DNA from: Chloroflexota bacterium
GTDB lineage: Bacteria > Chloroflexota > Limnocylindria > Limnocylindrales > CSP1-4
Direction: 5' to 3'
NCBI GenBank assembly: GCA_046328155.1
Contig: JAXLXC010000003.1
Span: 55,873-119,872 of the forward strand
DNA length: 64,000 nucleotides
Below are positions 1,168-23,048 of this stretch, piece by piece. The position numbers and the translations under genes are program-made. The first letter of the stretch is position 1, and every line of letters starts with the position of its first letter. The notes below the pieces were generated by a model. The model searched no databases, was not told the DNA's origin, and saw only the letters and a program-made list of their open reading frames with translations.

Positions 1168-1170
1168 CGG

Positions 1171-3292: not shown

Positions 3293-3294
3293 CG

Positions 3295-3984: not shown

Positions 3985-3988
3985 CCCG

Positions 3989-6255: not shown

Positions 6256-6261
6256 CGTGCG

Positions 6262-6420: not shown

Positions 6421-6848
6421 GATCCCCCCAGGCCGTCGGCCCCCAGGTCGATCGTGAAGTCGTGCTGGCATGCCGGGCAGCTGACCGCGACCTGGCTGGT
6501 GCCCTCCTGGTTGACCCTCCGGTAGAGGTCCTGCAGGAACGCGAGGTCGCTCGCGAACATGCCCTCCACGATGCCGGGATGGACCTCCGGGAGCGACCCC
6601 AGCCGCGTGACGACACGCGACAGGAGCAGCACCGTGAGGTACGCCTCGTTCTCGCGGACGCGCGGGTCCCGCTGGGGGATGATCTCGTCACGGGCAGTGG
6701 CGAGCCGCATCGTCCCCTCGCGGTGGACGCCGCCGTTGGCGTCCACGTAGCCGCGGGGCAGGACGAACGCGAACTCGGTCCGGAGGCCGGTCCCGGCACC
6801 CCGCGCGGGGGCGCCCACGGCCTGGGTGGGCGACGGCGCCAGGCTCAT
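6417..6848 (-). CDS. Hypothetical eCIS-associated protein (143 aa)
   Basis: It lies between the tube and putative tape-measure genes in operon orientation, the position that tail-assembly chaperones occupy in phages. It has a C-terminal SCPACQHD half zinc-finger and non-repetitive composition. Confidence 0.45.
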   Translation of the reverse strand: MSLAPSPTQAVGAPARGAGTGLRTEFAFVLPRGYVDANGGVHREGTMRLATARDEIIPQRDPRVRENEAYLTVLLLSRVVTRLGSLPEVHPGIVEGMFASDLAFLQDLYRRVNQEGTSQVAVSCPACQHDFTIDLGADGLGGS

Positions 6849-6857
6849 CGCGTCGCC

Positions 6858-7313
6858 CTAGACCCGCTCGAACGCCTCGCACACGAGCGAGGCCTCCTCC
6901 ATCAGCACCTCGTTGGCGCCGGCCTTGAGGGTGCCCGTGGAGATCTTGGAGATCCACGCGTTGGTGAAGTTGTAGCGCGCGACCTCCGAGCCGTCGTAGC
7001 TCTTGAGGATCACCGAGCCGTTCTTGCGCGACTCGCTGAGCTTGCCCTCGAGCACCGCCTGGTGCCAGTCCCAGAGGGCCTTGGACGAGCTCTTGGCGCG
7101 CTTGAGGGTGATGGTCGGGGGCTTGACCGCCCCCGGCGCCTTGTGGATGACGAGCTTGCCGTCCGGCGTGTTCTCCTTGAGCTCGACCACGTCGACCTCG
7201 GATGCCAGACCGCTCACCTCGGCGAACTGGGCGATCTCGATGGAATCGATCTCGATGGCGAACAGGTAGGACGCCAGCGCGTCCGTGGGCAGGTTGGGGA
7301 GTCCGCTGGCCAT
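6858..7313 (-). CDS. Inner tail tube protein (Afp1-like, Phage_T4_gp19 family)
   Basis: 151 aa: ...ASYLFAIEIDSIEIAQFAEVSGLASEVDVVELKENTPDGK..., a tube-protein signature. It lies immediately downstream of the sheath gene. Confidence 0.85.
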   Translation of the reverse strand: MASGLPNLPTDALASYLFAIEIDSIEIAQFAEVSGLASEVDVVELKENTPDGKLVIHKAPGAVKPPTITLKRAKSSSKALWDWHQAVLEGKLSESRKNGSVILKSYDGSEVARYNFTNAWISKISTGTLKAGANEVLMEEASLVCEAFERV

Positions 7314-7332
7314 GGGTCGTTGCCTCTCCTCA

Positions 7333-8856: not shown

Positions 8857-9069
8857 GAGTGCCTCCGGTGATCGGAACGGACGCGCCGGAGGCTCGCAGC
8901 GGCAGCCACGACCCGGAAGTGCCCGCCGGTCCGCGGTCGGGGCAGCCGAGGATGCCCCGAGGGGCGATCGCCCGGCTGTCGATGCCTCATCGGGCGATCG
9001 CGAGTGCCCGGTCGGCCGCACCCGGGCGGGGCCCGCCGCCGGTCCCGGGAGGCGATGCTCCCCCGCGCG
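8857..9069. promoter_or_regulatory. Divergent intergenic control region between the sheath operon (-) and the cap/ATPase genes (+). It contains two copies of GGGCGATCGC (8962-8971 and 8992-9001); the first is part of a perfect 12-bp palindrome GGGCGATCGCCC.
   Basis: The two genes are transcribed outward from this 213-bp gap. The repeats were read directly from the sequence. Confidence 0.4.
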
Positions 9070-9903
9070 ATGATCCATGACGTCGACGAGTCGCTGCGCA
9101 CCCTGGTCAAGCGGGACGCCCTTGAGGGTTCGCGCGTGGACCTCGCGTTCGATGCCCCCACCCGCGAGTGGGCGGCGCGCCAGAACAGCCCCATCGTCTC
9201 GCTCTACCTCTACGACATCCGCGAGGACGTGTCGCGCCGCGAGGTGGCCTGGGAGACCCAGCGCGGGCCGGACCGGATGCCCACCCAGCACGCCCAGCCG
9301 CCTCGCCGCTACCGCCTGAGTTACCTCATCACGGCGTGGACCCAGCGCCCGGAGGACGAGCATCGGCTGCTGTCGTCGATGCTCGCCTGCTTCCTGCGCC
9401 ATCCCGTCCTGCCCACCGACGTGCTGGTGGGCGACCTGACCGGGACCTCGCTGCCGGTGCTCACCACCATCGCGCTGCCGCCGCCCCAGGACCGCTCCAT
9501 CGCGGACGTGTGGTCGGCGCTCGGCGGCGAGCTCAAGCCCTCGCTCGACCTGGTGGTGACGGCACCCCTGGATGCGTCCGTGCGCATCCCCGCTGCCGCC
9601 CCGGTGCTCGAGTCGCCACGGATCCGGGTGGTCCGGCCCGATGGCACGGGCGACGAGGTGGCGGTCGCAGGTCCGGGTGGTGGCGGGGCCGCACGCCGGC
9701 CCCTCGCACCCGACGACGAGGCCGACCAGGAGGAGACGGTGGAGCCGGGTGCCGTGGGCGTCGCGCGGCTGGGCCAGCCCGGGCCCCAACCGGCGCCTAC
9801 GGGTGGTCGCAAGCGCGCGGCGGCGGGCGCCCCGCAGGAGCCGCCGTCCACGGCCAGGCTCCCGGGCCGTCGGCTGATCATCCGGGGCGTGCGTCGCCCG
9901 TGA
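9070..9903 (+). CDS. DUF4255 (Pvc16_N) protein; eCIS tail terminator/cap, Afp16-like
   Basis: Starts MIHDVDESLRTLVKRDALEGSRVDLAFDAPTREWAARQNSPIVSLYLYDIRED, the hallmark DUF4255 N-terminus. Its stop overlaps the ATPase GTG start (GTGA). Confidence 0.8.
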   Translation: MIHDVDESLRTLVKRDALEGSRVDLAFDAPTREWAARQNSPIVSLYLYDIREDVSRREVAWETQRGPDRMPTQHAQPPRRYRLSYLITAWTQRPEDEHRLLSSMLACFLRHPVLPTDVLVGDLTGTSLPVLTTIALPPPQDRSIADVWSALGGELKPSLDLVVTAPLDASVRIPAAAPVLESPRIRVVRPDGTGDEVAVAGPGGGGAARRPLAPDDEADQEETVEPGAVGVARLGQPGPQPAPTGGRKRAAAGAPQEPPSTARLPGRRLIIRGVRRP

Positions 9904-12004
9904 CCGTCGCCGCCGGTCGCCCGGCCGACGAGGCGGCCGAGGTCGCGGGGCACGCCGACGCCTCGCTGGCCTACCTCGGGGCGCGTCTGGCCCTCCTCGA
10001 GGCGCGCGTGCGGTCGGCCGTCGAGCGGCGCCGCGCCACCGACCCCGACCCCGACGACCGGTTCCGGGGCCTCTACATCCCCGAGACCATGGTCGACCAG
10101 CTGCTGGCGGGCGCCCGCCCGCTCCTGCCCGACGGGCCGGACCACGCGTCGCTCGAGGCGCTCGACGGGTCCGCCGAGGTCGCGGAGGCCCAGGGCGCGA
10201 CCATCGGGCTGCGGCGGCTGGCCCGCGGCTTCGACCTCGCGCCACTGGACCTGGAACTCCTGCTGGTGGCGCTCGCGCCGGACCTCGAGCCGCGGTTCGA
10301 GCGGCTGTACGCGTATCTCCAGGACGACGTGTCGCGGCGGCGGGCGGGCATCGGCCTCGCGCTCGAGCTGGCGACCGGGATTCCGGGCCTCAGCCCGGCC
10401 CGGGCACGGCTGGGCCCGTCGTCGCCCCTGGTCGCGAGCGGCCTGCTGCTGGCGGACGAGCCCGAGCGCCCGTTCCTCACCCGGTCGCTGCGGGTGCCCG
10501 ATCGCGTCACGGCGCACCTCCTGGGCGACGACACGCCCGACCCACGCGTGGCGCTGCTGGCGATGGAGCCTGTGCCCCTGGCCCAGCCCGAGGGGGCGCT
10601 CGTGGCCCGTGCGATCGCCGCGGGCGTCCCGCTGGTGCATGTCCGGGAGCGACCGGGGACCGCCGGGGTCGCGATGGTGGCGGCAGCCCTGGGTGCCGTC
10701 CACCGAGGCGTGCTGACCCTCGACCTCGCCCGGCTGGGGCCGCTCGACGACGCGGGCGAGGTCGCGGCCGCCGCCGCCCGCGAGTGCCGGCTGCTGGGCG
10801 CCACGCTCATGGCCGGCCCGGTCGATGCGCTCGCCGAGCGCGGCGCAGCCGCCGTCCGCGCGTTCGCCGAGGCGCCCTGCCAGGTCGTGCTGGTGGGCGC
10901 CCGCACCTGGGATCCCGCATGGTCGCGACATGTGCCGGTGCTGGTGGACGCGCCGGCCCCTCGATCGAGGACCGCGCCGCGGCGTGGCAGGGGGCGCTGG
11001 ACGGGTGTGACGGGTCCGCCGACCCGGGCACGGTCACCGTCCAGTTCCTGTTGGGACCCGAGCAGATCGCGCGCGCCGCTCGCTCGGCGCGCCAGCAGGC
11101 GGACGCCGAGGACCGCCCGCTGCTGCCCGAGGACCTGCGCGCGGGTGCCCGCGCCCAGAACGCCGCGGGGCTCGAGCGTCTGGCCCGACGGGTGCGCCCG
11201 GCCGTGGGCTGGGACGACCTCGTGCTGCCCTCCGAGGTCGTGACGCAGCTCCAGGAGCTTGCGTCCCGCGCCCGGTACCGGGACGTCGTGCTCGACCGGT
11301 GGGGCATGGGTCGCGGATCATCCACCAAGGGACGTGGCATGACTGCCCTGTTCGCGGGGGACTCGGGCACCGGCAAGACCATGTCCGCCGAGGTGATGGC
11401 CGGGGACCTCGGGCTCGACCTCTACGTCATCGACCTCTCGACGGTCATCGACAAGTACGTGGGCGAGACCGAGAAGCACCTCGACCGGATCTTCACCGAG
11501 GCCGACCGGGTCAACGGGGTGCTCCTGTTCGACGAGGCGGACGCCGTGTTCGGCAAGCGCTCCGATGTCAAGGACTCCCACGATCGCTATGCGAACGTCG
11601 AGGTCGCGTACCTGCTCCAGCGCATGGAGCTGTTCGACGGCGTGGCCATCCTGACCACGAACCTGCGCGCCAACCTCGACGAGGCGTTCACCCGACGTCT
11701 CGACGGGGTGGTGGACTTCCCGGTCCCAGACGAGGACGACCGACTGCGTCTCTGGGAGCGCCACCTGCCGGTGGGCGTGCCGCGGGCCGACGACGTGGAC
11801 CTGGGGTTCCTCGCGCGCAGCTTCCGGCTCTCCGGGGGCAACGTTCGCAACGTCTGCCTCGCCGCCGCGTTCCTGGCCGCCGCGGACGGTCGGCCGATGC
11901 GCATGGCGGACCTCATCCACGGCACCGCCCGCGAGTATCAGAAGCTGGGCCGCCTGTTCGTGGAGGCCGAGTTCGGGCCTTGGCATCACCTCGTGCGGGG
12001 CTGA
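9900..12004 (+). CDS. eCIS AAA+ ATPase (Afp15-like), interrupted by a -1 frameshift at the C4 run 10957-10960 as sequenced
   Basis: The N-terminal 350 aa are in frame 0 (VTVAAGRPADEAAEV...VLVDAPAP). The Walker-A/AAA module is in the +2 frame (...PSIEDRAAAWQGAL...LFAGDSGTGKTMSAEVMAGDLGLDLYVIDLS...LLFDEADAVFGKR...). One extra C would join them into ...APAPSIEDRAAAW... Confidence 0.75.
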
Positions 12005-12185
12005 CGCGACATCCGTCGCATGGCGGATGCGCCGGGCGACCGATGGATCGGAGCGACGCCGACGGTCAACATGACGCGGACGGGTCCCCGGCGGCGCGAC
12101 ATCCACGAGCGTGGACAGCAGGAGCCCCCGGGGATCCGATGCCTTCCGGCGCCAGCCCGGCATCCATGGCCGGTTCGGCCCGTGC

Positions 12186-13745
12186 ATGGCATGCTCCGGA
12201 CCGGTGCCACCGACCACCGCCTCCCTGCCGCTCCGGGTCGCGACCCTGCTCGTCCTGGCCGCGCTGCTCGTGCCCGCGTCGCTGGCGCCTGCGCTGCTCG
12301 CGCCATCTCCCGTGCATGGCCAGGACCCCGCGACGCCGCCGACCATCGAGGTCTCCGGGTCGCCCCTGCTGCGCGACGAACCCGGCCGAGGGGTCCTGAT
12401 TCGCGTGACGCTCCGCGAGCCGGCCCACCTCCGACTGCTGGTCACCGACTTCGACGGCCAGGTGGTGCGCGAGCTGTACGACGGCGACCGAGGCGTCGGC
12501 GACCTGGGGCGTCGCTGGCGGGGTCGGGACGCGGACGGCCGTCTGGTCGCGGTGGGGGCCTATCGGGTGAGGGCCATCGCGTCCACCGCGGCCGTCCCGA
12601 CGGGCGTCGCGTCGGACGCGTGGGTCACGGTCGCCGACCACGCCGCGTACCCGGCGGACCCGGGCGCCATCACGGGGGTCGTCGACCCGGGTCACGGCGG
12701 CCCGTTCGATGGCGCGGTCGCACGCGATGGCACGCGCGAGGCCGACCTCAACCTGGACATCGGGCTGCGGCTCGCGCGGATGCTCGAGGGCGCCGGCGTG
12801 CACGTCGTGCTCACGCGGGATTCCGACCGACAGGTCGACCAGCCACCGATCGACCGGATCCCCGATGGCATCCTGGATGTGACCGACGACCTGGCCGCGC
12901 GCGCGGACCTCGCCAACGCCGTCCGGGCCGACCTGTTCATCGCCATCCACAACAACACCGCGGTCGACCGCACCACGGGCGGGCCATCCACCTACTACTC
13001 CGACGAGCGCACCTTCAGCGCCCGGTCGCGACATCTGGCGCGGATCATCCAGGCTCACATGGTGGCTGCCCTCGACGCGGTCGGGAGCGGCGCGTGGGCG
13101 CCCTACGACCACGGCGTCCTGGCGTATCCCTACTACGTCCTGCGCGACTACGACCCGCCCCGTCTGCTCCGTCCCAGCCAGATGCCCGCGGTCCTCTCGG
13201 AGGGGCTGTTCCTGTCCAACCCCCGCGAGCTGCGGATGCTCCAGCGCCCCCGCGTGCGGCAGGCCATGGCCGTCGCGTACTACGAGTCCGTGGTGGAGTA
13301 CCTCGCCACGCGCGGCAGCCACGTGGGATACGCGCTCCTGCGTGCCCCCACGACGGTCGAGGCGGGGTCGCCCGTCGAGCTGGAGCTGGAGGTCCGCGAC
13401 CAGGGCACCACCACGCTGCGGGGCTGGCACCTGGCCGTGGGCGCCCAGGTGGACGGGTCGACCGCGCTGGGACGCGCCCGTCCGGGTGGCACGCTGGGAG
13501 AGCGCCGCATCCCGACGCGCCGGCCGGGCCAGCGACGCACCCTCCGGGTCACCGCGACGGCGCCGGTGGAGCCGGGCCGCTGGGTGCTCCTGGTCGACGC
13601 GCGTGGCCCCACGGGTGGCCGCGCCTCGGAGGCCGGCAGCCCCATGCTCCAGGTGCCCATCGAGGTCACCGCGCCGGCGTCCGCGGATTCGTCCGTGGTC
13701 CCAGCTTCGCCCACCCCCGGGTCATCGGTGGCGCCAACGCCATAG
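12186..13745 (+). CDS. Secreted N-acetylmuramoyl-L-alanine amidase (Amidase_3) with an N-terminal Ig-like domain
   Basis: Signal-peptide-like N-terminus (MACSG...RVATLLVLAALLVPASLAPALLAPSPVHG). Amidase_3 motifs DPGHGGPFDGAV, DLNLDIGLRLARMLEGAGVHVVLTRDSD and ADLFIAIHNNT. An alternative start at 12111 is possible. Confidence 0.8.
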   Translation: MACSGPVPPTTASLPLRVATLLVLAALLVPASLAPALLAPSPVHGQDPATPPTIEVSGSPLLRDEPGRGVLIRVTLREPAHLRLLVTDFDGQVVRELYDGDRGVGDLGRRWRGRDADGRLVAVGAYRVRAIASTAAVPTGVASDAWVTVADHAAYPADPGAITGVVDPGHGGPFDGAVARDGTREADLNLDIGLRLARMLEGAGVHVVLTRDSDRQVDQPPIDRIPDGILDVTDDLAARADLANAVRADLFIAIHNNTAVDRTTGGPSTYYSDERTFSARSRHLARIIQAHMVAALDAVGSGAWAPYDHGVLAYPYYVLRDYDPPRLLRPSQMPAVLSEGLFLSNPRELRMLQRPRVRQAMAVAYYESVVEYLATRGSHVGYALLRAPTTVEAGSPVELELEVRDQGTTTLRGWHLAVGAQVDGSTALGRARPGGTLGERRIPTRRPGQRRTLRVTATAPVEPGRWVLLVDARGPTGGRASEAGSPMLQVPIEVTAPASADSSVVPASPTPGSSVAPTP

Positions 13746-13757
13746 CTCGGCCGGCGG

Positions 13758-14516
13758 TCAGCGGTTCGTGGCGTCGCGCCACGCCTCCTGTGCGGCCGGC
13801 CACCACCGGGCGATGACCACGTCGTCGCCATACCACGGGCTCCCGACCACGCCGTGGAGCGCGTCGTGGAGCGTGAGGTGCCGGGCGCCGGGCAGGTGGG
13901 CGAGCGAGAGCGAGACGATGCCATCGCCACCCGACGCGAGCGTGGGACCCGTGATGCGTCGGAAGAACGCGTGCTGCGCCCGGGCGATCGGGCCTCGGCG
14001 ACGCGAGGGCGGCCCGGTCGCCGGTCGGACCGCCTCGGACCCGACCGTGAGATAGGCGGTCCCGGGCGCGTCGTGGGCACCTGGCGCGTGACGTGCGAGG
14101 TGGGCGGCCAGCCGCACCCCCTCGTGGGTGCCCCGCAGCGGGGCGAGGTGGAGGTCGTGCGGCGACCCAAGCGTCACGAGACAGCCGACCCGGTCGGCCA
14201 TGCCGCCCACATGGCCCCGATACGGCGCCTCGGACATGGCGAGTCGGGCCAGCAGCCCACCACCCGAGTGGCCCACGACCATGATCGGACGGCCCGCGGC
14301 CCGCCGATGCGTCCCCTCGATGGCCAGGGCGACCTTCCGCTGGAGCGCCCCGAAGCCGCGGACCCCGGCGAGACCCCAATCGAGGGCATGGACCGGCGCG
14401 ATGTCCACGCCCGCCGCCCCGCGATGGAGCAGCCGCCGGCGCATCCGTCGATAGGCCACCGGGGGCGCCAGCAGGCCACCCACGATGAGCACCCACGGTC
14501 GGTCGCGGTCGGTCGC
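13758..14516 (-). CDS. Alpha/beta-fold hydrolase (lipase/esterase-like, GHSGG nucleophile elbow)
   Basis: ...PWVLIVGGLLAPPVAYRRM...RPIMVVGHSGGGLLARLAM... The start could also be at 14546. Confidence 0.65.
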   Translation of the reverse strand, partial: ATDRDRPWVLIVGGLLAPPVAYRRMRRRLLHRGAAGVDIAPVHALDWGLAGVRGFGALQRKVALAIEGTHRRAAGRPIMVVGHSGGGLLARLAMSEAPYRGHVGGMADRVGCLVTLGSPHDLHLAPLRGTHEGVRLAAHLARHAPGAHDAPGTAYLTVGSEAVRPATGPPSRRRGPIARAQHAFFRRITGPTLASGGDGIVSLSLAHLPGARHLTLHDALHGVVGSPWYGDDVVIARWWPAAQEAWRDATNR

Positions 14517-14588
14517 CATCTGGTCCACGGACGCAGGATGCCCCAACCAGCCGGAGGGGCCCTCGCCGGGCGCGTGCGCCCGGCGACG

Positions 14589-15512
14589 TCAGTCGGCGGA
14601 GTCGTCCCCCACCACGGGCACGGCTCCCTCGCGGCGTGGGGTCTGCTCCTCGGCCGCGCGGCGCTTGCGCTCCTCCTCGTCGATCTCGCGCTGCTCGATG
14701 GCCACGTCCATGACGGTGCCCTGCCTGATGCCGTGGCCGGTCCGCGCGTCATACGCCCTGCTCTTGGTGGCCAGGGACGCCTTGGCGCCCGCGAACAGCC
14801 GCTGCCCGGTGGCCACGGGCTTGCCCAGCATCCTGGCCGCCTGACCATCGAACAGCTGATGGACCAGGTCGATGTGGCCCTGCTCGTGCGCCCGCAGCGC
14901 CGCGTACCAGCGGGACCACTCCGCGCGGGCCTTGGGGAGCATCGTGCTGGGTGGCGCCCAGGACGGCATCTGCAGCTCGATGGCGACGCTGATGGTGACC
15001 GAGTCGATGATGCCGTCCGTCTGATGGAAGTCGAGGCTTGGCGCCCAGCTCACCTGGCCGGCCTCGGGCCGGCCGCCGATGGCAGCCGCGACGTCCGCGA
15101 GGGTGGATGCCACCACCTCGTAGCCCGATTCCGCGACAGGGCCCACGCTCTCGGTCGCGGCAGCCGCGTCGCCGCCCGAGAGCTGCGGGACCTCGTCGGT
15201 GGGCGTCCCCAGGTCGATGTCCTCGATGTCACGGCTGACGGTGACGTCGGTGATGCCCGTGGACGCGGCTCCCCGGCCGACACCCAGCCCTGTCGCGTGG
15301 CCGCGGCCGCCCAGCAGGCTCCCGAGCGCGGCGTTGCCAGCGTCCGCCTGGAGGCCTCCGATGGCACGCACGCGGCTGGCGGCGTCCGCCGCGTCGAGGT
15401 CGCGTGCCAGGTCGGCCGGCGGGAGCCCGAGGCGGCCCGTGGCCCCCTCGATGCGCTCGGCATCGACCGCCTGCCGCTGGGCGCCGCGTCGATGCGCTCG
15501 CTGTCGGGTCAT
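14589..15512 (-). CDS. DUF922-like putative Zn-metallopeptidase (HEQGH motif)
   Basis: The C-terminal ...LPKARAEWSRWYAALRAHEQGHIDLVHQ... matches the DUF922 / predicted secreted Zn-protease HExxH pattern. ATG at 15512; the ORF-track extension to 15902 overlaps the divergent DUF4157 gene and reads as garbage. Confidence 0.55.
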   Translation of the reverse strand: MTRQRAHRRGAQRQAVDAERIEGATGRLGLPPADLARDLDAADAASRVRAIGGLQADAGNAALGSLLGGRGHATGLGVGRGAASTGITDVTVSRDIEDIDLGTPTDEVPQLSGGDAAAATESVGPVAESGYEVVASTLADVAAAIGGRPEAGQVSWAPSLDFHQTDGIIDSVTISVAIELQMPSWAPPSTMLPKARAEWSRWYAALRAHEQGHIDLVHQLFDGQAARMLGKPVATGQRLFAGAKASLATKSRAYDARTGHGIRQGTVMDVAIEQREIDEEERKRRAAEEQTPRREGAVPVVGDDSAD

Positions 15513-15734
15513 GCTCGCCCGATGGTCGCCCCAGCCCCACGCCGGAGGCACGTCCGGCTGGTCGCACGAACGGGCGCCCTGGACCGCCCGAAGGGTCGTC
15601 CCGGTCGGCCCGGACGGGCACCCGTCGCTTCCCGTGCCGACGCGCCGCCGGGCCTTGGTGCCAGTCGCGACCGGGCGCAGGCTCCAGGCCAGCGGGTGGC
15701 AGCGGCCTGGCCAGGCGACCCGTCCACTTCGGGA

Positions 15735-16535
15735 GTGACGAGCGTGGGCAACGAACTGGACCTCGAGCTCGCCGGTGGCGTGCGGACGGCGCTGCCGGGA
15801 CATGCCACCGAGGCGTCCACGGCGGGTCATGGCCCGATGCTCGCCGCGCGCGCAGTCGCCGAGGGCCGCCCGTCCGCCCTGGACGCCGCCTCCATCGCCC
15901 ACCTCCAGGCCGTGGCTGGGAATGGCGGTGTCGCGCGGCTACTCGAGGACGATGCGCCCGACCAGGTGCGCTCGGCGCTCTCGCGCTCCGGCGAGACGCT
16001 CGACCCAGCGGTCGCCGCCGACATGTCGGCGCGGCTGGGCGCGGACCTCTCGGACGTGCGGATCCACCGAGACGCCACGGCGTCCGAATCGGCACGGGCG
16101 GTCAACGCCAACGCCTACACGGTCGGCTCCGACATCGTGTTCCAGTCCGGCCAGTACGACCCGGCGAGCCCGGCCGGCCAGCGGACCCTCGCCCACGAGC
16201 TGACCCACGTGGTCCAGCAGCGCGCCGGTGCCGTCGACGGCACCGAGGTCGGCGACGGGCTGGCGCTCAGCCATCCGTCCGACCGCTTCGAGCGCGAGGC
16301 CTCGAGCACGGCCGACCGGCTGATGGCGGGAGCCAGCCCAGCGGCGACGCCCGCGCCCGTGACCGCGGCCCGCCACGCCGATGCCCACGAGGACGGCACG
16401 GCGCAGCGGGGCATCGCCATCGAGAACGTCGCCGACGACGAGGAACAGCCCGAGGAGGAGGAGCAGACGGGCGCCGGGCTCATCGGCCAGCGCGACACCG
16501 ACGAGCCCGAGGAGGAGGAGCAGACCGCCGGGTGA
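15735..16535 (+). CDS. DUF4157-domain protein (HExxH; eCIS-associated toxin N-terminal-domain family) with a poly-acidic C-terminal tail
   Basis: Starts at a GTG (15735) preceded by GGGAG. Canonical DUF4157 core: DLSDVRIHRDATASESARAVNANAYTVGSDIVFQSGQYDPASPAGQRTLAHELTHVVQQ. The C-terminus carries ...EEQPEEEEQT...DEPEEEEQTAG. The 5' part of the 893-aa track ORF is antisense to the neighbouring genes and spurious. Confidence 0.75.
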   Translation: MTSVGNELDLELAGGVRTALPGHATEASTAGHGPMLAARAVAEGRPSALDAASIAHLQAVAGNGGVARLLEDDAPDQVRSALSRSGETLDPAVAADMSARLGADLSDVRIHRDATASESARAVNANAYTVGSDIVFQSGQYDPASPAGQRTLAHELTHVVQQRAGAVDGTEVGDGLALSHPSDRFEREASSTADRLMAGASPAATPAPVTAARHADAHEDGTAQRGIAIENVADDEEQPEEEEQTGAGLIGQRDTDEPEEEEQTAG

Positions 16536-16575: not shown

Positions 16576-17238
16576 CTAGATCAGCCCCTGCTTGATGGCG
16601 TACGCGACGGCGTGGGTCCGGTTGCGCAGCTCCAGACGGCTCGTGATGTCGTGGACGATGTTCTTGACCGTCCGCTCGGAGTAGAACAGCTCCCGACCCA
16701 CCTCGGCCGTGTCCATGCCGTCGGCGAGCAGTCGCAGCACCCGGACCTCGCGCTCCGACAGACCCCGGAACGTCAGCCCGCGGGGCGCCAGCACCTGTCG
16801 CTGGAGGCGACCGACCTGGTCGAGCAGCCGACCCAGCAGGTCCGGGGGCAGCGTCCCCTCGCCGGCCGCCACGGAGCGGATCATCGAGCGCAGGTTGCCG
16901 GACGTGGCATCGCCACGCCGCAGCACGCCGCTCACCCCGGCCTCGACCGCGGCCAGCAGCCCTTGGTCGTCGAGACGCGCCACGAGCAGCCCGACGCGCT
17001 CCACCCCCTGGCGCCGCAGGGCGCGGATGCGTCGCGTGGCCTCCTCGTCGACCTCGTCGGCGACCACGAGCGCGACCGCGGCCCCACCCGGCTGCGCCTC
17101 CTCGACGACGCGGACGCCGGGCGCGGCGCGCAGCTGCGTCACCGTGCCCGCCCGGGATACCGGGTCGGCGGCCGAGACCGCGACCTCGATGGTGTCCAGA
17201 TGGCGTGCCTCGGCTGGATGATCCTGCACCAGGTACAT
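16576..17238 (-). CDS. LuxR/NarL-family response regulator (C-terminal HTH)
   Basis: C-terminal LuxR HTH (...LSEREVRVLRLLADGMDTAEVGRELFYSERTVKNIVHDITSRLELRNRTHAVAYAI). ATG at 17238 with GGAGG upstream. No adjacent kinase. Confidence 0.75.
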   Translation of the reverse strand: MYLVQDHPAEARHLDTIEVAVSAADPVSRAGTVTQLRAAPGVRVVEEAQPGGAAVALVVADEVDEEATRRIRALRRQGVERVGLLVARLDDQGLLAAVEAGVSGVLRRGDATSGNLRSMIRSVAAGEGTLPPDLLGRLLDQVGRLQRQVLAPRGLTFRGLSEREVRVLRLLADGMDTAEVGRELFYSERTVKNIVHDITSRLELRNRTHAVAYAIKQGLI

Positions 17239-17359
17239 GACACCTCCTCGTCCTGTGGCGTCAGCGGGTCGCTGCCCGTTCGGGTCGACCTGCGACCTGC
17301 CGGGCCTCCCGGGGATGCTGGCCCCGGGGTGCCCCGAAGGCTGCCCCCGCGGACTTGCC

Positions 17360-17381
17360 GCCGACTGAACGCCGACTGAAC
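17360..17381. repeat. Perfect tandem direct repeat, 2 x GCCGACTGAAC (11-mer), in the divergent promoter region between the LuxR regulator and the membrane-protein operon
   Basis: Read directly: ...cttgcc GCCGACTGAAC GCCGACTGAAC gg... Confidence 0.5.
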
Positions 17382-17493
17382 GGACCACCGCCCCCACGGG
17401 TGCGCACGACCTGGGGCGACGAGCTGCCGATCGCCCGCCCGATCGCCCCGATGGGTAGTCGGCGCGCGACGGCTGCGCCTAGACTCCCGGGCC

Positions 17494-18705
17494 ATGGGAG
17501 CGATCGCCGTCCTGGGTACCCGATCGATCGCCGTGGCGCCGGGCGCGCAGGCGAGCGTCGAGATCAAGGTCCGCAACAACGGCACCGTCGTGGACCAGTT
17601 CTCGATCCAGGTGCTGGGCGATGCCGCGCCGTGGTCCGCGTCCGAGCCGCCGGTCGTCTCGCTGTTCCCGGGAGCCGAGCAGACCGCGCGGGTCACCTTC
17701 AAGCCGCCACGCTCGCCCAGCGTCCCCGCGGGCCCAATGCCCTTCGGGGTGCGCGTCGCCTCCCAGGAGGATCCGGCGGGGTCGGTGGTCGAGGAGGGCC
17801 AGCTCCAGGTCGGTGCCTACAGCGAGACGAGCGCGGAGCTGGCACCCCGGACCTCTCGGGGCCGGACGAGCGCGACCCACGACCTTGCCATCGACAACCG
17901 TGGCAACACCATCCTCAACGCATCGGTCACGGGTCTCGACCCGGACCGGACGCTGGCGTATGACATCAAGCCGCCGGCGCTCGTCATCGACCCGGGAGCC
18001 GCCGCGTTCACCAAGGTCGCGGTCAGGCCTCGCCGTCGGTTCTGGCGTGGGCAGCCCAAGACCCACGCCTTCCAGGTCCAGCTGGACGGCGGTCCGGCAC
18101 CCGTGCTGGTGGGCGGGTCGATGCTCCAGGAGCCGCTGCTGCCGCCCTGGCTGCTGAAGGCCCTGGCGCTGCTGCTCGCCGCGCTCGTGGCGCTCGCGCT
18201 CATCTGGGTCCTGTTCCTCCAGCCCGCCATCCGGTCCACCGCCCAGGAGAGCGCCGAGGAGGTCCTGGCCGGCGTGGGCATCACCCCCAACCCCAACCCC
18301 AACGGCAACGGGGATGGCAACGGGGACGGCCAACCCTCGCCCACGCCCACCACCCCCGGCCAGAGCACCTCGCCCACCACGCCCACGCCCACGCCGGGAC
18401 CCGCGGGCGTCCAGACGCCGACGGATGGCCGCCTCGTGGCCGGCGGGACCCCCGCGGCGCCGAGCGACGACCGGACGCTATACGTGACGGACCTGGTGTT
18501 CTCGAACCCGAACGGGACCAGTGGCACCGTGCGGCTGCGCCGGTCGGGCGATGACCTGTTCGTGCTCAACCTGGACAACTTCCGGGACCTGGACTTCCAC
18601 TTCGTGACGCCCATCGCCGTGGGGTCCGACCAGAGCCTGCGACTGGTCTGCGAGGGCGTGTGCGACGGCCCGCCCGCGGTGTACTTCTCGGGGTACCAGC
18701 GCTAG
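17494..18705 (+). CDS. Bitopic membrane protein: N-terminal cytoplasmic beta-rich domains, one TM helix, Pro/Thr/Gly linker, about 100-aa C-terminal extracytoplasmic domain
   Basis: No signal peptide (MGAIAVLGTRSIAVAPGAQASVEIKVRNNGTVVDQFSIQVLG...). Single hydrophobic helix WLLKALALLLAALVALALIWVLFL. Linker NPNPNGNGDGNGDGQPSPTPTTPGQSTSPTTPTPTP. C-terminal domain with two Cys (LRLVCEGVCDG). Confidence 0.6.
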   Translation: MGAIAVLGTRSIAVAPGAQASVEIKVRNNGTVVDQFSIQVLGDAAPWSASEPPVVSLFPGAEQTARVTFKPPRSPSVPAGPMPFGVRVASQEDPAGSVVEEGQLQVGAYSETSAELAPRTSRGRTSATHDLAIDNRGNTILNASVTGLDPDRTLAYDIKPPALVIDPGAAAFTKVAVRPRRRFWRGQPKTHAFQVQLDGGPAPVLVGGSMLQEPLLPPWLLKALALLLAALVALALIWVLFLQPAIRSTAQESAEEVLAGVGITPNPNPNGNGDGNGDGQPSPTPTTPGQSTSPTTPTPTPGPAGVQTPTDGRLVAGGTPAAPSDDRTLYVTDLVFSNPNGTSGTVRLRRSGDDLFVLNLDNFRDLDFHFVTPIAVGSDQSLRLVCEGVCDGPPAVYFSGYQR

Positions 18706-18707
18706 CC

Positions 18708-20708
18708 ATGGCCAGGCGGCTGGTCGCCGCCGCCCTCGGCGCCCTGCTGCTGCTGTCGGGCGTGCTGCCGACCCCGGACCCGCTGCCGCCCGCCTCCGCC
18801 CCCGTGGCGGCCGCCAGCTCCGGGATGCCCATCGTGTCGGTCGACCCGTCGTGCCTGCCGGCGAGCAGCGACCCGGCCGTCCCCGAGACGAGGGACGTCG
18901 AGGTGGAGGGGCACGGGTTCGAGCCCGGCAGCCAGGTGCCGATCAGGCTGTACGCATCGGAGGGTCAGCCGGTCGCGTTCGCCGACGCGGACGCGCTGGG
19001 CACGTTCCGCGCCACGATCCCGGTGCCGCTGCCCGCCGAGGCCGCCGGGGTCGTGGTCCTGGCCGGCGACGTCGGGGGCACCGCTGCCCAGGCGTACCTG
19101 CAGGTGCCGTGCCTGCCCACGCTCCAGGTCGACCCCACCTGCGCGGACCCCGGCCAGACGTTCGATGTGACGTTCACCGCGACCAACTTCCAGCCCGACA
19201 CCCAGATCCGGGTGGGTCTGGTCGGGCCGCCCGATGGCGACATCATCTCGGACCCGCTGACCACCGACGGCGACGGTCGGCTGGAGTACGCATTTCGAGG
19301 CATGGGACCGCTGCCCGAGGGGACCTACTACGCTGCCGCGGTCCAGGGGGTCGGCGGGGGCCAGACCATGCCGCGTGCGGCCGTCCGCAACCCGTGGGTC
19401 GCGGCGGCACCGTTCGAGGCCCCCTGCCCGGCGCGCCCGACCCTGACGCTCGACCCTGACTGCGGTCGTACCGGGTCACCCCAGGACCGGTATGCCGTGA
19501 CGGTCCGTGGCACGGGCTTCGAGCCGGGCGAGGCCACCATCACCTGGGACACCGGTGGCTCGCAGGAGACGTTCCTGGCCCAGGTGGGCACGGACGGCAC
19601 GTTCGAGGCGCCCATCGACCCGTGGCGGCGAGGTCGGATGCGGATCCGGGTGCGCGCGGCGCAGCGCTTCCTCCAGCTGTCCGAGGTGTCCGGCGTCGCC
19701 GCCTACTCGCCCGATTGGCGACCCAGACGCGCCGTGGCGACCTCGTTCACGGTCCCCTGCGCGCCGACCGTCCTCACCCTGGACCCCGACTGCGACCGCC
19801 CGGCCCTGCGCGGCGAGGCCGAGCGTCGGATGACCCTGGCGGTGCGTGGATCGGGCATCCGGATGTCGTCCGTCGCGAGCAGGGCGCCCACCACGGAGCT
19901 GGTGTTCGACGCCGATGGCGCAGCCGCGGACGTGCTGGAGCCAGAGCGGTTCCCTGTCGAGGTGGGCGCGGACGGGACCCTGTCGGCGACCATCACGCCG
20001 CTCGCGCGGCCCATGGGCGAGTACCGCGTCGCCCTGGTCGTCGATGGCCAGCCGCTCGCGCAGGCGACGTTCCGGGTGCCCTGCGAGCAGGCGCAGCCGA
20101 ACCTGCGCCCGCTGCTGCCCGACTGCCTGCCGCTCGCACCTGGCCAACCGGCCGTCGCGGAGCTCCGCGTGCGAGGCCGACGCTTCTACCCTGGGCCTGT
20201 GGAGGTGCTGTTCGGCGAGCAGGGCGCGCGGGACGCCACGACGGGGACCGTGGCGGACGACGGCACCTTCGACGTGACGCTGCCGGTGACGGGCCGCGAG
20301 CCTGGCACCTACCAGGCACAGGGTCGTCAGCGCGACACGCGCGGCACGGTGGTGGCGCGCGCGTTCCGCGACCTCGAGGTGCCCTGCGTGGACCCGGTCA
20401 TCGCGGTCAGCCCGGCGAGTGGGCCGACGGGGTACGCGACCATGGTCAGCGGCACCGGGTTCCCGCTGGACACGGTCATCACCCTCACGTGGGACCGAGG
20501 CCTCACCGCCGCTCGCCCGATCGTGGTCACCACGGATGCCACGGGGGCCTTCCGGGTGGGGGCCTACATCCTGCCCAACGACATCGAAGGGTCGCGCACG
20601 CTCACCGCCGGCACGCCCCAGGACGCCCAGGCCTTCCCGGGCGTGAGCGCCCGCTATCTGGTGGTGCCGGGGTCCGGCCAGCCGCCGGGGAGCGTCGACC
20701 GTCGCTGA
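18708..20708 (+). CDS. Secreted protein with six tandem Ig-like (IPT/TIG-like) repeats delimited by conserved Cys pairs
   Basis: Signal peptide MARRLVAAALGALLLLSGVLPTPDPLPPASA. Repeats are each headed by ...VPC...(L/V)DP.C... (VDPSCLP / VDPTCADPG / LDPDCGRTG / LDPDCDRPA / LLPDCLPLA / VPCVDPVIAV) followed by ...GTGFEPG-like strands. Its start is 3 nt after the upstream stop. Confidence 0.6.
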   Translation: MARRLVAAALGALLLLSGVLPTPDPLPPASAPVAAASSGMPIVSVDPSCLPASSDPAVPETRDVEVEGHGFEPGSQVPIRLYASEGQPVAFADADALGTFRATIPVPLPAEAAGVVVLAGDVGGTAAQAYLQVPCLPTLQVDPTCADPGQTFDVTFTATNFQPDTQIRVGLVGPPDGDIISDPLTTDGDGRLEYAFRGMGPLPEGTYYAAAVQGVGGGQTMPRAAVRNPWVAAAPFEAPCPARPTLTLDPDCGRTGSPQDRYAVTVRGTGFEPGEATITWDTGGSQETFLAQVGTDGTFEAPIDPWRRGRMRIRVRAAQRFLQLSEVSGVAAYSPDWRPRRAVATSFTVPCAPTVLTLDPDCDRPALRGEAERRMTLAVRGSGIRMSSVASRAPTTELVFDADGAAADVLEPERFPVEVGADGTLSATITPLARPMGEYRVALVVDGQPLAQATFRVPCEQAQPNLRPLLPDCLPLAPGQPAVAELRVRGRRFYPGPVEVLFGEQGARDATTGTVADDGTFDVTLPVTGREPGTYQAQGRQRDTRGTVVARAFRDLEVPCVDPVIAVSPASGPTGYATMVSGTGFPLDTVITLTWDRGLTAARPIVVTTDATGAFRVGAYILPNDIEGSRTLTAGTPQDAQAFPGVSARYLVVPGSGQPPGSVDRR

Positions 20709-20735
20709 CCCGTGCGCCGCACCCGGGCGGGCGCC

Positions 20736-21986
20736 TCACTGCTGGATGTCGATGACCAGCTCCACGACGCTCCCGTCGTCGGGGTCGTCGGTGACCCAGG
20801 CGGGTGCCTGGAGCGAGTAGCAGGTGTCGCCCCGGACGCCCAGCGCGAGCCATTGGCGACCCTCGTCGTCCGTGCCCGCGGTCACGGCCCGGACCTTCGG
20901 CAGGGCGACCTCCTGGTCCACCGCCAGGGTGGCGCGGATCCCATCCGACAGGGTCAGCACGACCGCGGTCCGGCCGACCGACGGTGCCCTGAACCCGAGC
21001 TGCTCCTCGACCTCCGAGACCGGGAGCACCTGGACCACGGCGCGGGTGCCCTTCCCATCCAGCCCCCTGCGACGGCTCAGTTCGAGATACACGTGATCGA
21101 AGCCCGGTCGGGTGCCCCACCTGACCCGGTCGATGTTCCAACCCCGCCCCAGCGGGTCCTCGAGCGCGACCGCCTCCCCGTCGCACAGGTACGTGCCGGC
21201 GGGCGGGGGCGTGGGAAGGTCGCCGGCAAGGCCGGTGGCGATCGGGGTCGCCGTCACGGTGGGGGTCCGCGTCGGTCGCGGGGTGACCCTGGGCGTCGGT
21301 CCCGCGGTGGCCTCGGCCGTGGGCGTGTCGGCCCCCCTCGGCGTGGCGGTGGGTCGCGCGGTGGGCTCCCCCGTGCGCCGCCCCGTGGGCGCGGACGTCG
21401 CGGCGGGCGTCCCCGACGCACGGGCGGTCCGAGGCGTGCTGGTGGGCGACGGTCCGCCCAGCGCACCGCCGAACACGATGGCGGCACCCACCACCGCGGC
21501 GATGGCGATGAGCCCGATGCCCGCGACCACGAACCGCCGCCCGCCACGGCCCGAGGCGGCCGTGGCCACGGGGCGCGGCGTGCCGGCGACGGTCCCGACC
21601 GCGGGGTCCAGCTCGTTGCCGCAGCGCTGGCAGAAGGTGCGCCCCGATGGGTTGGCCAACCCGCAGAAGCGGCATGTGACGCCACCCATCACGGGTGGCG
21701 CGATCATCTGGGGCGGACCCTGCGGCTCGGGTGGCGGGGCAGGGGCGAGGTAGGAGCCGCTCCATCCGCTCGTGACGGGTGGGCTGGCCGGCGTCGCCCC
21801 GGTCCCGGCCGCTCGCGCGTCCCGGGCCGGGACGGGCGCGGCGGGGGTGTCGCCGGATGCCGGCCCGACGGGCGCAGCGGCGTCGCCGGAAGCGGACCAG
21901 CCGAGATAGCGCCCGCACTGGCCGCAGAACTCATCCCCGGCCTCGTTCTGGAAGCCGCATGCCGGACACGCGATTCGATCGCCCAC
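20736..21986 (-). CDS. Membrane protein: N-terminal double zinc ribbon (2 x CxxC..CxxC), one TM, Pro/Thr-rich linker, conserved C-terminal domain
   Basis: MGDRIACPACGFQNEAGDEFCGQCGRYLGW...TCRFCGLANPSGRTFCQRCGNEL. TM segment FVVAGIGLIAIAAVVGAAIVF. C-terminal ...YLCDGEAVALEDPLGRGWNIDRVRWGTRPGFDHVYLEL...VVELVIDIQQ. Confidence 0.6.
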   Translation of the reverse strand: MGDRIACPACGFQNEAGDEFCGQCGRYLGWSASGDAAAPVGPASGDTPAAPVPARDARAAGTGATPASPPVTSGWSGSYLAPAPPPEPQGPPQMIAPPVMGGVTCRFCGLANPSGRTFCQRCGNELDPAVGTVAGTPRPVATAASGRGGRRFVVAGIGLIAIAAVVGAAIVFGGALGGPSPTSTPRTARASGTPAATSAPTGRRTGEPTARPTATPRGADTPTAEATAGPTPRVTPRPTRTPTVTATPIATGLAGDLPTPPPAGTYLCDGEAVALEDPLGRGWNIDRVRWGTRPGFDHVYLELSRRRGLDGKGTRAVVQVLPVSEVEEQLGFRAPSVGRTAVVLTLSDGIRATLAVDQEVALPKVRAVTAGTDDEGRQWLALGVRGDTCYSLQAPAWVTDDPDDGSVVELVIDIQQ

Positions 21987-22052
21987 GACGTGCTGCTCCC
22001 GTGCGACGTGACCCTTCGCAGTCTAGCCCGCCGCACCGCGAGGGCCGGGCCC

Positions 22053-23048
22053 TCAGCGCTGGATGTCGACGACGAGCTTGGCCGTGGTGGTGTCGTCGCC
22101 GCCGTTGCGCCAGTCGTTCGCGACGAGCCGGGCGCATCCGTCACCCGCGATGCCCAGGACCGCATGGACCACGCCGTCGTCGTCGGTGCGTGCGGCGACG
22201 CTGGCGAGCGCCGTGAGGCCTGGCCGTTCGGCGATGTCGGTGCGCAGCGCGATGGGGCCGTCGAACGTGATGACCAAGGCGCGGTCCCCAGCCGGCATGG
22301 TCACGTCGTATCGCGAGGCGGCGCGAGCCGGACGCAGGAACTCCATGCCCACGATCGTGCCCGTGCGCGTCGACCCTTGGAGGCGGGCGAGGTCGAAGGT
22401 CAGGCGGTCATAGCCGTCCCGCTGGCCCCAGCGGGCTCCCGTCACGCGCCAGCGGCCGCCCAGGGGATCCTGGATGGCGTCGTCGTCGCAGGTCCATGAG
22501 GTCCGGGTCGACAGGGGCGTGGTGGTCGGCTCGTCCGATGGCTCGTCGGGGCCGGGCGTCGCCTCGGCGCCTGGATCCTCGGTCGCGCCGGCTGGGTCCT
22601 GGGTCGGCTCCGCGACCGGGTCGTCCGTGGCGACCGGATCGGGGGCCCGGCTGGGTGCCCCGGTCGGCTCGGCGGTCGCCGCCGGTTCGCCGCTCGCCGC
22701 GATGCCCCCGGACGCGGGCGACGTGGCGCCCTGCCCGGCGGTCGTGGGCGCGGATTCGAAGCCCCGGAACACGAGGAACCCCGCGATGCCCGCGATGACC
22801 ACGATCGCCACGAGGCTGATGACCGCGGCGATCCCGGCGCCGCGCTCGGAGGGCAGGTCCGCGCGCCGCGTGGTGGTGCCCCGGACCGGGTCGCGGGGCG
22901 CGCCGAGCGGCAGGCCACAGCTCCGGCAGAAGCGTGCGGTGACCTCGTTGCGCAGGTGGCACACGGGACAGACGACGAACGGGGGCACCTGGGTGGCGGC
23001 ACCAGCCGCCGCCGTCCCCTTCCGACCGGGAACCCTCATCGAGGGCAT
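22053..23048 (-). CDS. Paralogous zinc-ribbon/TM protein with the same C-terminal domain
   Basis: ...VCPVCHLRNEVTARFCRSCGLPLG...; TM IAAVISLVAIVVIAGIAGFLVF; C-terminal ...WTCDDDAIQDPLGGRWRVTGARWGQRDGYDRLTFDLARL...AKLVVDIQR, which aligns with the C-terminus of the 20736-21986 protein. Confidence 0.6.
   Translation of the reverse strand: MPSMRVPGRKGTAAAGAATQVPPFVVCPVCHLRNEVTARFCRSCGLPLGAPRDPVRGTTTRRADLPSERGAGIAAVISLVAIVVIAGIAGFLVFRGFESAPTTAGQGATSPASGGIAASGEPAATAEPTGAPSRAPDPVATDDPVAEPTQDPAGATEDPGAEATPGPDEPSDEPTTTPLSTRTSWTCDDDAIQDPLGGRWRVTGARWGQRDGYDRLTFDLARLQGSTRTGTIVGMEFLRPARAASRYDVTMPAGDRALVITFDGPIALRTDIAERPGLTALASVAARTDDDGVVHAVLGIAGDGCARLVANDWRNGGDDTTTAKLVVDIQR

Follow-up and report, generated by a model that had tools for sequence, protein, structure and literature searches.

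Which of the genes lying beside an injection system belong to it? The question is raised by positions 16576 to 23048 of a 64,000-nucleotide stretch of DNA (hereafter, the window) from contig JAXLXC010000003.1 of GenBank assembly GCA_046328155.1, in which five genes adjoin a contractile injection system (CIS). G1 (16576-17238, minus strand; 220 amino acids [aa]) encodes a NarL/LuxR-type regulator, G2 (17494-18705, plus strand; 403 aa) a single-pass membrane protein, G3 (18708-20708, plus strand; 666 aa) a secreted protein, and G4 (20736-21986, minus strand; 416 aa) and G5 (22053-23048, minus strand; 331 aa) two zinc-ribbon membrane paralogs. Because the G+C content of the window is about 72%, genes were called from the GC bias at third codon positions (GC3) and then translated. 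All five genes were recovered, with architectures roughly as described in a first-pass annotation of this DNA, and the adjoining CIS proved to be real, with gp25, PAAR, VgrG, two tube genes, a sheath gene, Pvc16, an AAA gene, and the DUF4157 "eCIS core" gene (eCIS, extracellular CIS). The actinomycete framing of that annotation did not hold: the host is a metagenome-assembled genome (MAG) of Chloroflexota/Limnocylindria, G2 has a 100% identical counterpart in a "Chloroflexota bacterium" MAG, and the relatives of G2 belong to Candidatus Limnocylindria/Limnocylindrales. Our reading, to which we assign a rough probability of 0.72, is that G1 to G3 and the intergenic region between them (16576-20708) form the regulatory and accessory arm of the CIS and that G4 and G5 belong to the chromosomal flank. 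It draws on observed homologies, folds, synteny, a presence/absence pattern, and a common DNA element.

Synteny was assessed in a genome scan that yielded 80 loci with G2 homologs at 42-79% identity, nearly all of them in Limnocylindria MAGs. A LuxR gene adjoined G2 in 72 of the 75 loci with enough flanking sequence, and the C-terminal domain (CTD) of G3 followed G2 in 64 of 67. Core CIS genes were found no more than 10 kb upstream in 48 of 58 loci, rising to 52 of 58 when DUF4157 was counted. Four loci with giant open reading frames (ORFs) of 2500-2770 aa in the flank are among those lacking a CIS match. In these loci (L045, L052, L063, and L082 in our numbering), the giant ORFs (about 80-8360) fill the space upstream of LuxR that is held elsewhere by CIS cargo, and they possibly encode very large effectors.

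Since nearly all 80 loci come from Limnocylindria, the position of G1 to G3 next to the CIS might merely be a gene order inherited within one class and devoid of functional meaning. This explanation is refuted by the co-occurrence of the genes across phyla, and we regard it as barely credible. LuxR, G2-like, and G3-like genes lie inside plasmid-borne CIS clusters of Streptomyces, Streptantibioticus, and Kitasatospora, where the gene order differs; a promoter element is common to both phyla; and a CIS-less relative (L169) also has no G1, G2, or G3. The functional linkage to the CIS that had been proposed for all five genes was upheld for G1 to G3, by the Limnocylindria synteny, the presence of the trio in two actinomycete plasmid clusters, and the common promoter element, but not for G4 and G5.

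One protein that ties this arm to known systems is G2. An AlphaFold2 model built with 14 homologs (mean predicted local distance difference test score [pLDDT], 83) comprised two cytoplasmic PapD-like/ASH beta-sandwich domains (residues 1-212), a transmembrane (TM) helix at 218-261, and a beta-sandwich at the C-terminus (308-402), the last two joined by a disordered Pro/Thr linker (262-301), which bears out the annotated layout of beta-rich cytoplasmic domains, one TM helix, a PT linker, and an extracytoplasmic CTD. The ectodomain is a 95-aa extracytoplasmic beta-sandwich with two conserved cysteines. It had no Pfam match, and a Foldseek search of the whole model against the PDB returned PapD/ASH-type matches only, none of them specific for the CTD. 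The structural matches of G2 are the templates that HHpred gave for domain 1 of Sco4256, which spans aa 2-215 and is followed by a TM helix at 219-250 (Vladimirov et al. 2023, PMC10020575 Supplementary Data 5). At the sequence level, G2 was 40% identical (E=4e-61), across both N-terminal domains and the TM helix, to the RICIN protein encoded in the CIS cluster of Streptomyces sp. NBC_01426.

In a tblastn search of plasmids, the N-terminal half of G2 matched 27 records, of which 20 were from Streptomyces, 1 from Kitasatospora, 2 from Streptantibioticus, and 4 from Deinococcus; their annotations include "hydrolytic protein," "hydrolase," and "RICIN domain-containing protein." The family is large, because its profile matched 6034 cluster representatives at E<=1e-3. 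G2 homologs lie inside the CIS clusters of Kitasatospora, of plasmid pSCAT of Streptantibioticus cattleyicolor, and of Streptomyces sp. NBC_01426 and NBC_01324. The CTD of G2 is likewise found within the pSCAT cluster, and it is shared (43% identity over 79 aa) by a Kitasatospora protein whose gene closes the CIS cluster. On a plasmid of Streptomyces cadmiisoli (L085, 20001-21822), a G2-like gene with a G2-type CTD stands between a lytic transglycosylase gene, which precedes it, and an orphan PAAR gene; a CIS cluster ends about 15 kb away.

Three features of the CIS-associated Sco4256-Sco4258 family of Streptomyces coelicolor, namely a conserved N-terminal domain, a single TM helix right after it, and a class IId CIS locus, are present in G2. 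Sco4256 to Sco4258 share their N-terminus and one TM helix, and Sco4257 and Sco4258 carry a RICIN CTD; the three proteins are toxic in Escherichia coli and needed for CIS-mediated death, and the tube lumens of the triple mutant are empty (Casu et al. 2023, PMC10066040). Judged by its homologies, G2 is a member of this family: it has the tandem PapD-like N-terminal module and the single TM helix at about 218-250, it matches a Sco4257/Sco4258-type Streptomyces protein, and its locus is class IId-like. It differs in its CTD, which is a 95-aa Cys-bridged beta-sandwich rather than a RICIN or pore-forming-lectin domain, and in its setting, since its gene diverges from the LuxR gene, is followed by a coupled gene for a secreted protein, and resides in Chloroflexota. 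G2 is co-inherited with the CIS and located at the end of the locus opposite the "fibre" position. In the mechanism that we propose, the tandem PapD-like module in the cytoplasm would associate with the CIS, membrane activity would reside in the TM helix of this putative effector, and the small disulfide-bridged ectodomain would be one among several interchangeable C-terminal modules. The resemblance of G2 to CisA that had been suggested was not borne out and was rejected, as the cytoplasmic part consists of two folded beta-sandwiches without a zinc ribbon and the match over the N-terminal domains and TM helix is to a Sco4257/Sco4258-type protein instead.

G1 is the candidate regulator of this arm. 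From its conserved start it measures 220 aa, within the 215-220 aa range of its homologs, and the open frame continues to 17397. Its annotation as a LuxR regulator held good, since it carries a C-terminal GerE/LuxR helix-turn-helix (Pfam PF00196, E=9.2e-14; 51 bits, with the cutoff at 23.5). NarL, MadR, and UvrY-type NCBIfam models aligned weakly to residues 71-273, all far below their cutoffs, and Pfam Response_reg gave no match at E<=0.1, which suggests that the receiver domain is atypical or degenerate. G1 was 46% identical over 204 aa (E=2e-52) to the LuxR protein of the Streptomyces sp. NBC_01426 CIS cluster, both being 220 aa long, and 46.6% identical (E=3e-54) to the one on pSCAT; a LuxR gene is also annotated at the equivalent place on the NBC_01324 plasmid. 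In Streptomyces coelicolor, transcription of the sheath operon depends on SCO4263, a cluster-linked LuxR-family regulator (Hesketh et al. 2007, PMC2000904), and SLP particles are absent from an slpR mutant of Streptomyces lividans (Nagakubo et al. 2021, PMC8505568). Like SCO4263 and SlpR, G1 is a LuxR-family regulator at the edge of a CIS cluster, it resembles the LuxR genes of three actinomycete plasmid clusters at 46% identity, and similar promoter half-sites are present in both phyla. This likeness rests on the LuxR genes of the plasmid clusters, not on the sequence of SCO4263. Unlike those regulators, G1 has no TTA/bldA control, and its receiver-like domain is missed by Pfam Response_reg. 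We propose that G1 is a cluster-specific activator of the CIS. In one complete Limnocylindria chromosome (L064), a gene for a 980-aa signaling protein (6840-9782) is inserted between the LuxR gene and G2; judged by eye only, it seems to have a PAS domain and a cyclic-di-GMP (EAL-type) domain.

The DNA between G1 and G2 (17239-17493), from which both genes diverge, contains a 28-nucleotide (nt) element, TGCCCCGAAGGCTGCCCCCGCGGACTTG, at 17330-17357. The element is unique in the window and has the layout TGCCCC-N6-TGCCCC...GCGGACTTG, which can also be written TGCCCC-N6-TGCCCCCGCGGACYTG. It matched 25 of 28 positions of a sequence in the sheath/DUF4157 intergenic region of the plasmid-borne CIS cluster of Streptomyces NBC_01426 (L166, 12068-12095), where it is likewise unique. 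The distance to the downstream start codon was 137 nt in the window and 138 nt in Streptomyces; the start is that of G2 in the window and, in NBC_01426, that of the DUF4157 gene, after which the G2-like RICIN gene comes next on that strand. A TGCCC/GGGCA half-site motif also occurs in the divergent promoter region between the sheath and Pvc16 genes (8857-9071), as ATGCCCCGAGGGGCG at about 8953. Across the loci, GGGCA-N6-8-TGCCC was present in 37 of 68 G1-G2 intergenic regions, and the sheath-cis16 regions contained TGCCC-N4-GGGCA in 20 of 38 cases and TGCCC-N6-8-TGCCC in 18 of 38. Measured against a background of 0.02-0.05 per kb over the loci, the half-site motif was enriched 30-100 fold in both promoter regions. 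On pSCAT and the NBC_01324 plasmid, these half-site arrangements were also found between the G2-like and LuxR genes, between the LuxR and G3-like genes, and between the AAA and sheath genes. From this distribution we infer that the half-sites are a common operator, most simply for G1, and their occurrence in both promoter regions is consistent with activation of the sheath operon by G1. G1 would then probably bind the half-sites upstream of G2 and in the sheath/cis16 promoter region, and by doing so would activate the G2-G3 operon along with the particle genes.

The same intergenic region carries other features. A tandem 11-bp direct repeat, GACTGAACG in two copies at 17363-17382, occurs nowhere else in the window (two matches were reached in 0 of 100 shuffles) and is kept in many related loci as two to three copies in an 11-bp register, 80-150 nt upstream of G2. 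It was rejected as a link to the sheath promoter, being present only upstream of G2 and absent from the sheath/cis16 region. A -10-like box, TAGACT, lies at about 17479-17484, and TAGACT or TACACT is found likewise in most loci; in a k-mer analysis of the related loci, the 7-mer TACACTC was enriched 91-fold upstream of G2. Because the box ends about 9 nt before the ATG of G2, the G2 transcript is suggested to be leaderless. Another candidate for a common promoter motif was GATCGC(C), 5 of whose 10 copies in the window fall in the two promoter regions; it was dropped because it was unenriched across related loci (3.6-4.8 versus 2.5 per kb).

The third member of the arm, G3, begins 3 nt past the stop codon of G2 and is translationally coupled to it. 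In the protein, a signal peptide precedes five Ig-like repeats delimited by Cys, and a sixth Ig-like domain, free of Cys, forms the C-terminus with PPGSVDRR as its last residues; the Pfam matches of G3, to Big_6/TIG, were weak. Repeat analysis gave six units of 97-111 aa with 25-35% mutual identity. The six repeats of about 100 aa described earlier were thus recovered, but the cysteine pair attributed to each of them (DPxC...VPC) was present in only five of the six units (10 Cys in total). Where the window has Cys-delimited Ig repeats, distant Limnocylindria have PD40 propeller repeats in the gene next to G2, which retains the CTD of G3 (41% identity over 96 aa). The same CTD ends a 1059-aa PD40+DUF11 protein on pSCAT (L171, 19230-22409; 38% identity, terminus ...PPGEVDRR), and a homolog of the latter, 1065 aa long and 58% identical, is encoded on the NBC_01324 plasmid (L172, 8854-12051). 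On both plasmids, the G2-like gene points away from LuxR, which is followed in the opposite direction by the G3-like gene, cis16, cis15, and the sheath gene. There, the cis16-cis15-sheath operon opens with the G3-like gene, whose stop codon overlaps the start of cis16; pSCAT also has a DUF4157 gene on the far side of the G2-like gene. The G3-like plasmid proteins may correspond to SCO4261 or SCO4262 of S. coelicolor. SCO4262 figures in the literature searched only as a bldA-dependent hypothetical gene (PMC2000904 among the sources), and our literature search found no studies of a G3-type protein. We propose that G3 is exported and most likely docks, by way of its conserved Ig-like CTD, to the envelope or to the ectodomain of G2. 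Contact with the wall or the surroundings would be made by its variable N-terminal part, which consists of Ig repeats here and of a PD40 propeller elsewhere.

Does this pair deliver an effector, or does it stay in the envelope? In the latter case, G2 and G3 would be a resident trans-envelope docking or trigger module rather than cargo and would couple envelope stress to firing: the membrane-borne G2 would use its PapD-like domains to hold or recruit the cytoplasmic CIS, and its ectodomain, with the secreted G3, would sense the state of the wall. The predicted N-in/C-out topology and the two conserved ectodomain cysteines, which suggest an extracytoplasmic disulfide, point in this direction, as do the lectin nature (RICIN) of other CTDs in the G2 family and the Kitasatospora G2-like gene, which stands in the "fibre" position beside a gene of CisA architecture. 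G3 is moreover tightly coupled to G2, its actinomycete counterpart heads the cis16-cis15-sheath operon, and the envelope-stress trigger of cytoplasmic CIS is still an open question (PMC12237407). Deletion of sco4256-58, however, empties the tube lumen, and the proteins are toxic in E. coli, findings that their authors read as those of effectors (PMC10066040). The G2-like gene of S. cadmiisoli stands beside an orphan PAAR gene, a typical effector context. On balance, we consider a resident docking module unlikely.

The two remaining genes, G4 and G5, had been described as convergent paralogs with double zinc ribbons. Their paralogy was confirmed (33% identity over 321 aa, E=3e-30; C-termini LVIDIQQ in G4 and LVVDIQR in G5), but G5 has one ribbon only, and the genes lie in tandem on the same strand, the pair being convergent with G3. 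G4 has two cytoplasmic zinc ribbons (four CxxC motifs; aa 5-25 and 104-124), with a Pfam DZR match, a TM helix at about 152-173, a Pro/Thr linker, and an AMIN-fold ectodomain at about 268-416. G5 has a single ribbon (two CxxC motifs), a TM helix at 71-95, and an ectodomain of AMIN fold in which a Cys pair is conserved. The cytoplasmic segment of G5 between ribbon and TM helix, PLGAPRDPVRGTTTRRADLPS (residues 45-66; window about 22851-22916), hardly varies among members of the G5 family, being kept even where the remainder is only 35-40% identical, and looks like a partner-binding motif. Against the Pfam AMIN-like family PF24837, G4 scored 19.2 bits and G5 24.0 bits, in each case under the 27-bit cutoff and with nearly the whole profile covered. 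The ectodomains thus share the AMIN fold of AmiC and PilQ (PDB 4bin and 4av2) with sub-threshold sequence similarity, and unlike in those proteins, the fold is mounted on a zinc ribbon and TM anchor, not on an amidase or a secretin. G4 and G5 would be tandem housekeeping-type envelope paralogs whose ectodomain, by its fold, probably binds peptidoglycan. A protein search with the CTD of G4 returned only four close matches and was uninformative, tblastn with G4 against plasmids gave no match, and no AMIN-type homolog was found in the actinomycete CIS clusters examined.

Further evidence on G4 and G5 came from their neighborhoods. To the right of G5, the window encodes a luciferase-like oxidoreductase, an aquaporin, and a CN hydrolase. 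Homologs of G5 at 37-50% identity were located on longer contigs, and 10 kb was read on each side. Three of these loci had the order CN hydrolase-luciferase-G5-G4-amidohydrolase (L167), CN hydrolase...luciferase-G5-acetyltransferase (L168), and CN hydrolase-luciferase-G5-G4-(905-aa secreted protein)-BBE oxidase-alpha/beta hydrolase...M4 peptidase (L169); within 10 kb, none contained sheath, tube, VgrG, gp25, cis16, AAA, DUF4157, G1, G2, or G3. Full-length G4 orthologs were present in L002 (E=2e-30) and in the CIS-less loci L167 and L169. A fourth locus of similar divergence, L170, had the full window-type arrangement. Because the M4 peptidase of L169 is 75% identical to one located past the far end of the CIS in a close relative of the window (L088), L169 looks like an empty site. 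L169 also keeps an alpha/beta hydrolase and a BBE oxidase, which elsewhere lie inside the CIS cargo region, so the CIS island may be composite. As the luciferase/CN-hydrolase neighborhood is kept without a nearby CIS in L167-L169, G4 and G5 fall outside the CIS unit; on this pattern, they are chromosomal flank genes inherited independently of it. The linkage of G4 and G5 to the CIS would, in the terms of the first-pass annotation, be refuted by a lack of synteny, and this is what the three loci display.

That annotation had combined all five genes into one undescribed system for surface recognition, anchoring, or firing control, in which G2 would be CisA-like and G4 and G5 would be anchors. 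The five genes are indeed contiguous with the CIS in the window and in L001/L008, L006, L007, L070, and L170, and G4 and G5 have the zinc ribbon-TM-ectodomain layout of CisA. We nevertheless find such a system very unlikely. G2 matches a Sco4257/Sco4258-type protein, and its cytoplasmic part is folded, not unstructured; the CTDs of G4 and G5 are AMIN-like, not NADase_transloc-like; G4 and G5 persist at the same chromosomal place with no CIS nearby; and a separate CisA-architecture gene follows the baseplate genes. A single five-gene operon or system was rejected on the presence/absence evidence of L167-L169.

Firing of the CIS in S. coelicolor depends on the membrane protein CisA (SCO4242; Casu et al. 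2025, PMC12237407). In HHpred, the zinc ribbons of CisA fall at aa 5-28 and 219-244, followed by a TM helix and a CTD that matches residues 50-198 of NADase_NGA (PMC10020575). G2, G4, and G5 each have one predicted TM helix and no signal peptide, and an N-in/C-out orientation was judged by eye from charge and ectodomain cysteines; a largely unstructured zinc-ribbon cytoplasmic part is found in G4 and G5, not in G2. G4 and G5 resemble CisA in their cytoplasmic zinc ribbon(s), low-complexity region, single TM helix, and extracytoplasmic domain of about 150 aa. They differ in the fold of the CTD, which is AMIN and not NADase_transloc/F5-8-type-C (no NADase_transloc match in Pfam), in not lying downstream of baseplate genes, and in their inheritance independent of the CIS. 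Their likeness to CisA is, on these comparisons, architectural only.

The architecture of CisA is better fitted by separate genes of relatives. In L088, which is the closest relative covering the baseplate end (the corresponding position in the window genome lies left of the window), a 379-aa gene after the baseplate genes (11201-12340) encodes two zinc ribbons, a TM helix, and a CisA-like (NADase_transloc-like) CTD. In distant Limnocylindria, such as L064 (13340-14476), a CisA-architecture gene follows the gene in the G3 slot. Others are found in Kitasatospora, after the baseplate genes and directly before the G2-like gene, and in S. cadmiisoli. Pfam PF25302 (NADase_transloc) was matched above cutoff by the L064 protein (E=5.6e-15) and the S. 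cadmiisoli protein (E=2e-12), and below cutoff by the Kitasatospora protein (E=5e-5, 23.9 bits versus 27). Given the L088 gene, Limnocylindria seem to possess genes of CisA architecture. This sets them apart from Roseiflexus, for which no close cisA homologues were reported and whose cytoplasmic CIS is, like the present one, a Chloroflexota system related to the Streptomyces lineage (PMC12998442).

G4 and G5 might still be additional CisA-like adaptors that have exchanged their ectodomain for a peptidoglycan-binding one and work with the CIS despite being inherited with the flank. The double zinc ribbon of G4 aligns with the CisA-architecture protein encoded after the G3-slot gene in L064 (32% over 155 aa, E=3e-15), the CTD of that protein is Pfam NADase_transloc, in agreement with the HHpred result for CisA, and the nearly invariant cytoplasmic segment after the ribbon of G5 would be suited to partner binding. 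The likeness is limited, however, to a common zinc-ribbon motif: the ribbons of G4 matched the fibre-position protein of L088 at the motif level only (E about 1e-4). The presence/absence pattern parts G4 and G5 from the CIS, and the actinomycete CIS clusters examined by tblastn have no AMIN-type homolog. We judge this role for G4 and G5 distinctly unlikely.

Several points weigh against assigning G1 to G3 to the CIS and G4 and G5 to the flank. Most loci come from MAGs, so that misassembly or misbinning is possible, and G1 and G2 were connected to published proteins by way of Streptomyces homologs on plasmids and of HHpred tables from the literature. The exact arrangement of the 28-mer is confined to near relatives of the window, and the TGCCC half-site is short and GC-rich, with a background measured mostly on coding DNA. 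The two ectodomain cysteines of G2 and its N-in/C-out topology suit a resident membrane protein better than cargo of the tube, and the role of "effector" may therefore be wrong for the whole family. With respect to G4 and G5, the alignment of the G4 ribbons with the L064 protein speaks for a tie to the CIS, and the genomes of L167-L169 may carry a CIS elsewhere, in which case G4 and G5 could act in trans.

The remainder of the CIS locus was delimited with Pfam. The structural operon occupies 1-8856 on the minus strand and comprises a baseplate J fragment (1-760), gp25 (763-1167), PAAR (1171-1554), VgrG (1565-3292), a tube gene (3989-4417), a 612-aa ORF with no Pfam match between both tube genes (4417-6255), the other tube gene (6858-7313), and the sheath gene (7333-8856; start MPTYLSPGVYVEE at 8856). 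Beyond the divergent promoter region lie Pvc16/cis16 (9072-9903) and AAA/cis15 (10784-12004), both on the plus strand, and a variable cargo region with an Amidase_3 gene (12111-13745, plus strand), an alpha/beta hydrolase gene (13758-14546, minus strand), a DUF922 gene (14589-15902, minus strand), and the DUF4157 gene (15939-16535, plus strand). The order of this 9072-16535 stretch, with cis16, AAA, and cargo genes, recurs in related loci. L088, which was found in a metagenome scan with the baseplate J fragment, is 82% identical to the window in baseplate J. The system is a Streptomyces-type, class IId-like, and probably cytoplasmic CIS. The 612-aa ORF has an unusually high GC content at second codon positions (0.70), the counterpart position in Kitasatospora holds a 1243-aa DUF4157 protein, and the ORF may be a tape-measure-like or effector gene. 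The gene at 12111-13745, directly after the AAA ATPase gene and inside the CIS locus, encodes an N-acetylmuramoyl-L-alanine amidase with a FlgD-type Ig domain and is confined to the nearest relatives of the window.

Cytoplasmic CIS of the Streptomyces type kill their own producer under envelope stress, and the route of the signal and the cluster genes involved besides CisA are still open. The first-pass annotation had called the present genes a system that has not been described; this does not apply to G1 and G2, given the published SCO4263-type LuxR regulator and Sco4256-58 effectors (PMC2000904, PMC10066040, PMC10020575), of whose kinds they are new members. What appears to be new about this known system is the G1-G2-G3 trio, the conserved CTD of G3, and the promoter element common to both phyla. 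The results place a LuxR regulator and a Sco4256-type membrane protein, conserved between Actinomycetota and Chloroflexota, together with a third travelling gene, apparently unstudied, for a secreted protein with a constant CTD and a variable repeat region. Limnocylindria carry CisA-architecture genes, contrary to the report on Roseiflexus, and removing both zinc-ribbon genes from the system saves experimental effort. The cross-phylum promoter element provides a concrete, testable candidate operator for the regulator. A bolder proposal, which we hold only tentatively and think rather unlikely, is that LuxR, G2-type, and G3-type genes are an unrecognized accessory trio spanning two phyla in which G2 and G3 form a trans-envelope sensor and docking site, not cargo. 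If this were true, the PapD-like domains of G2 would capture the particle, and the G2 ectodomain and the propeller or Ig repeats of G3 would read the state of the wall. The trio would then supply the missing link from envelope stress to firing, with one regulator and its operator controlling both particle and sensor.

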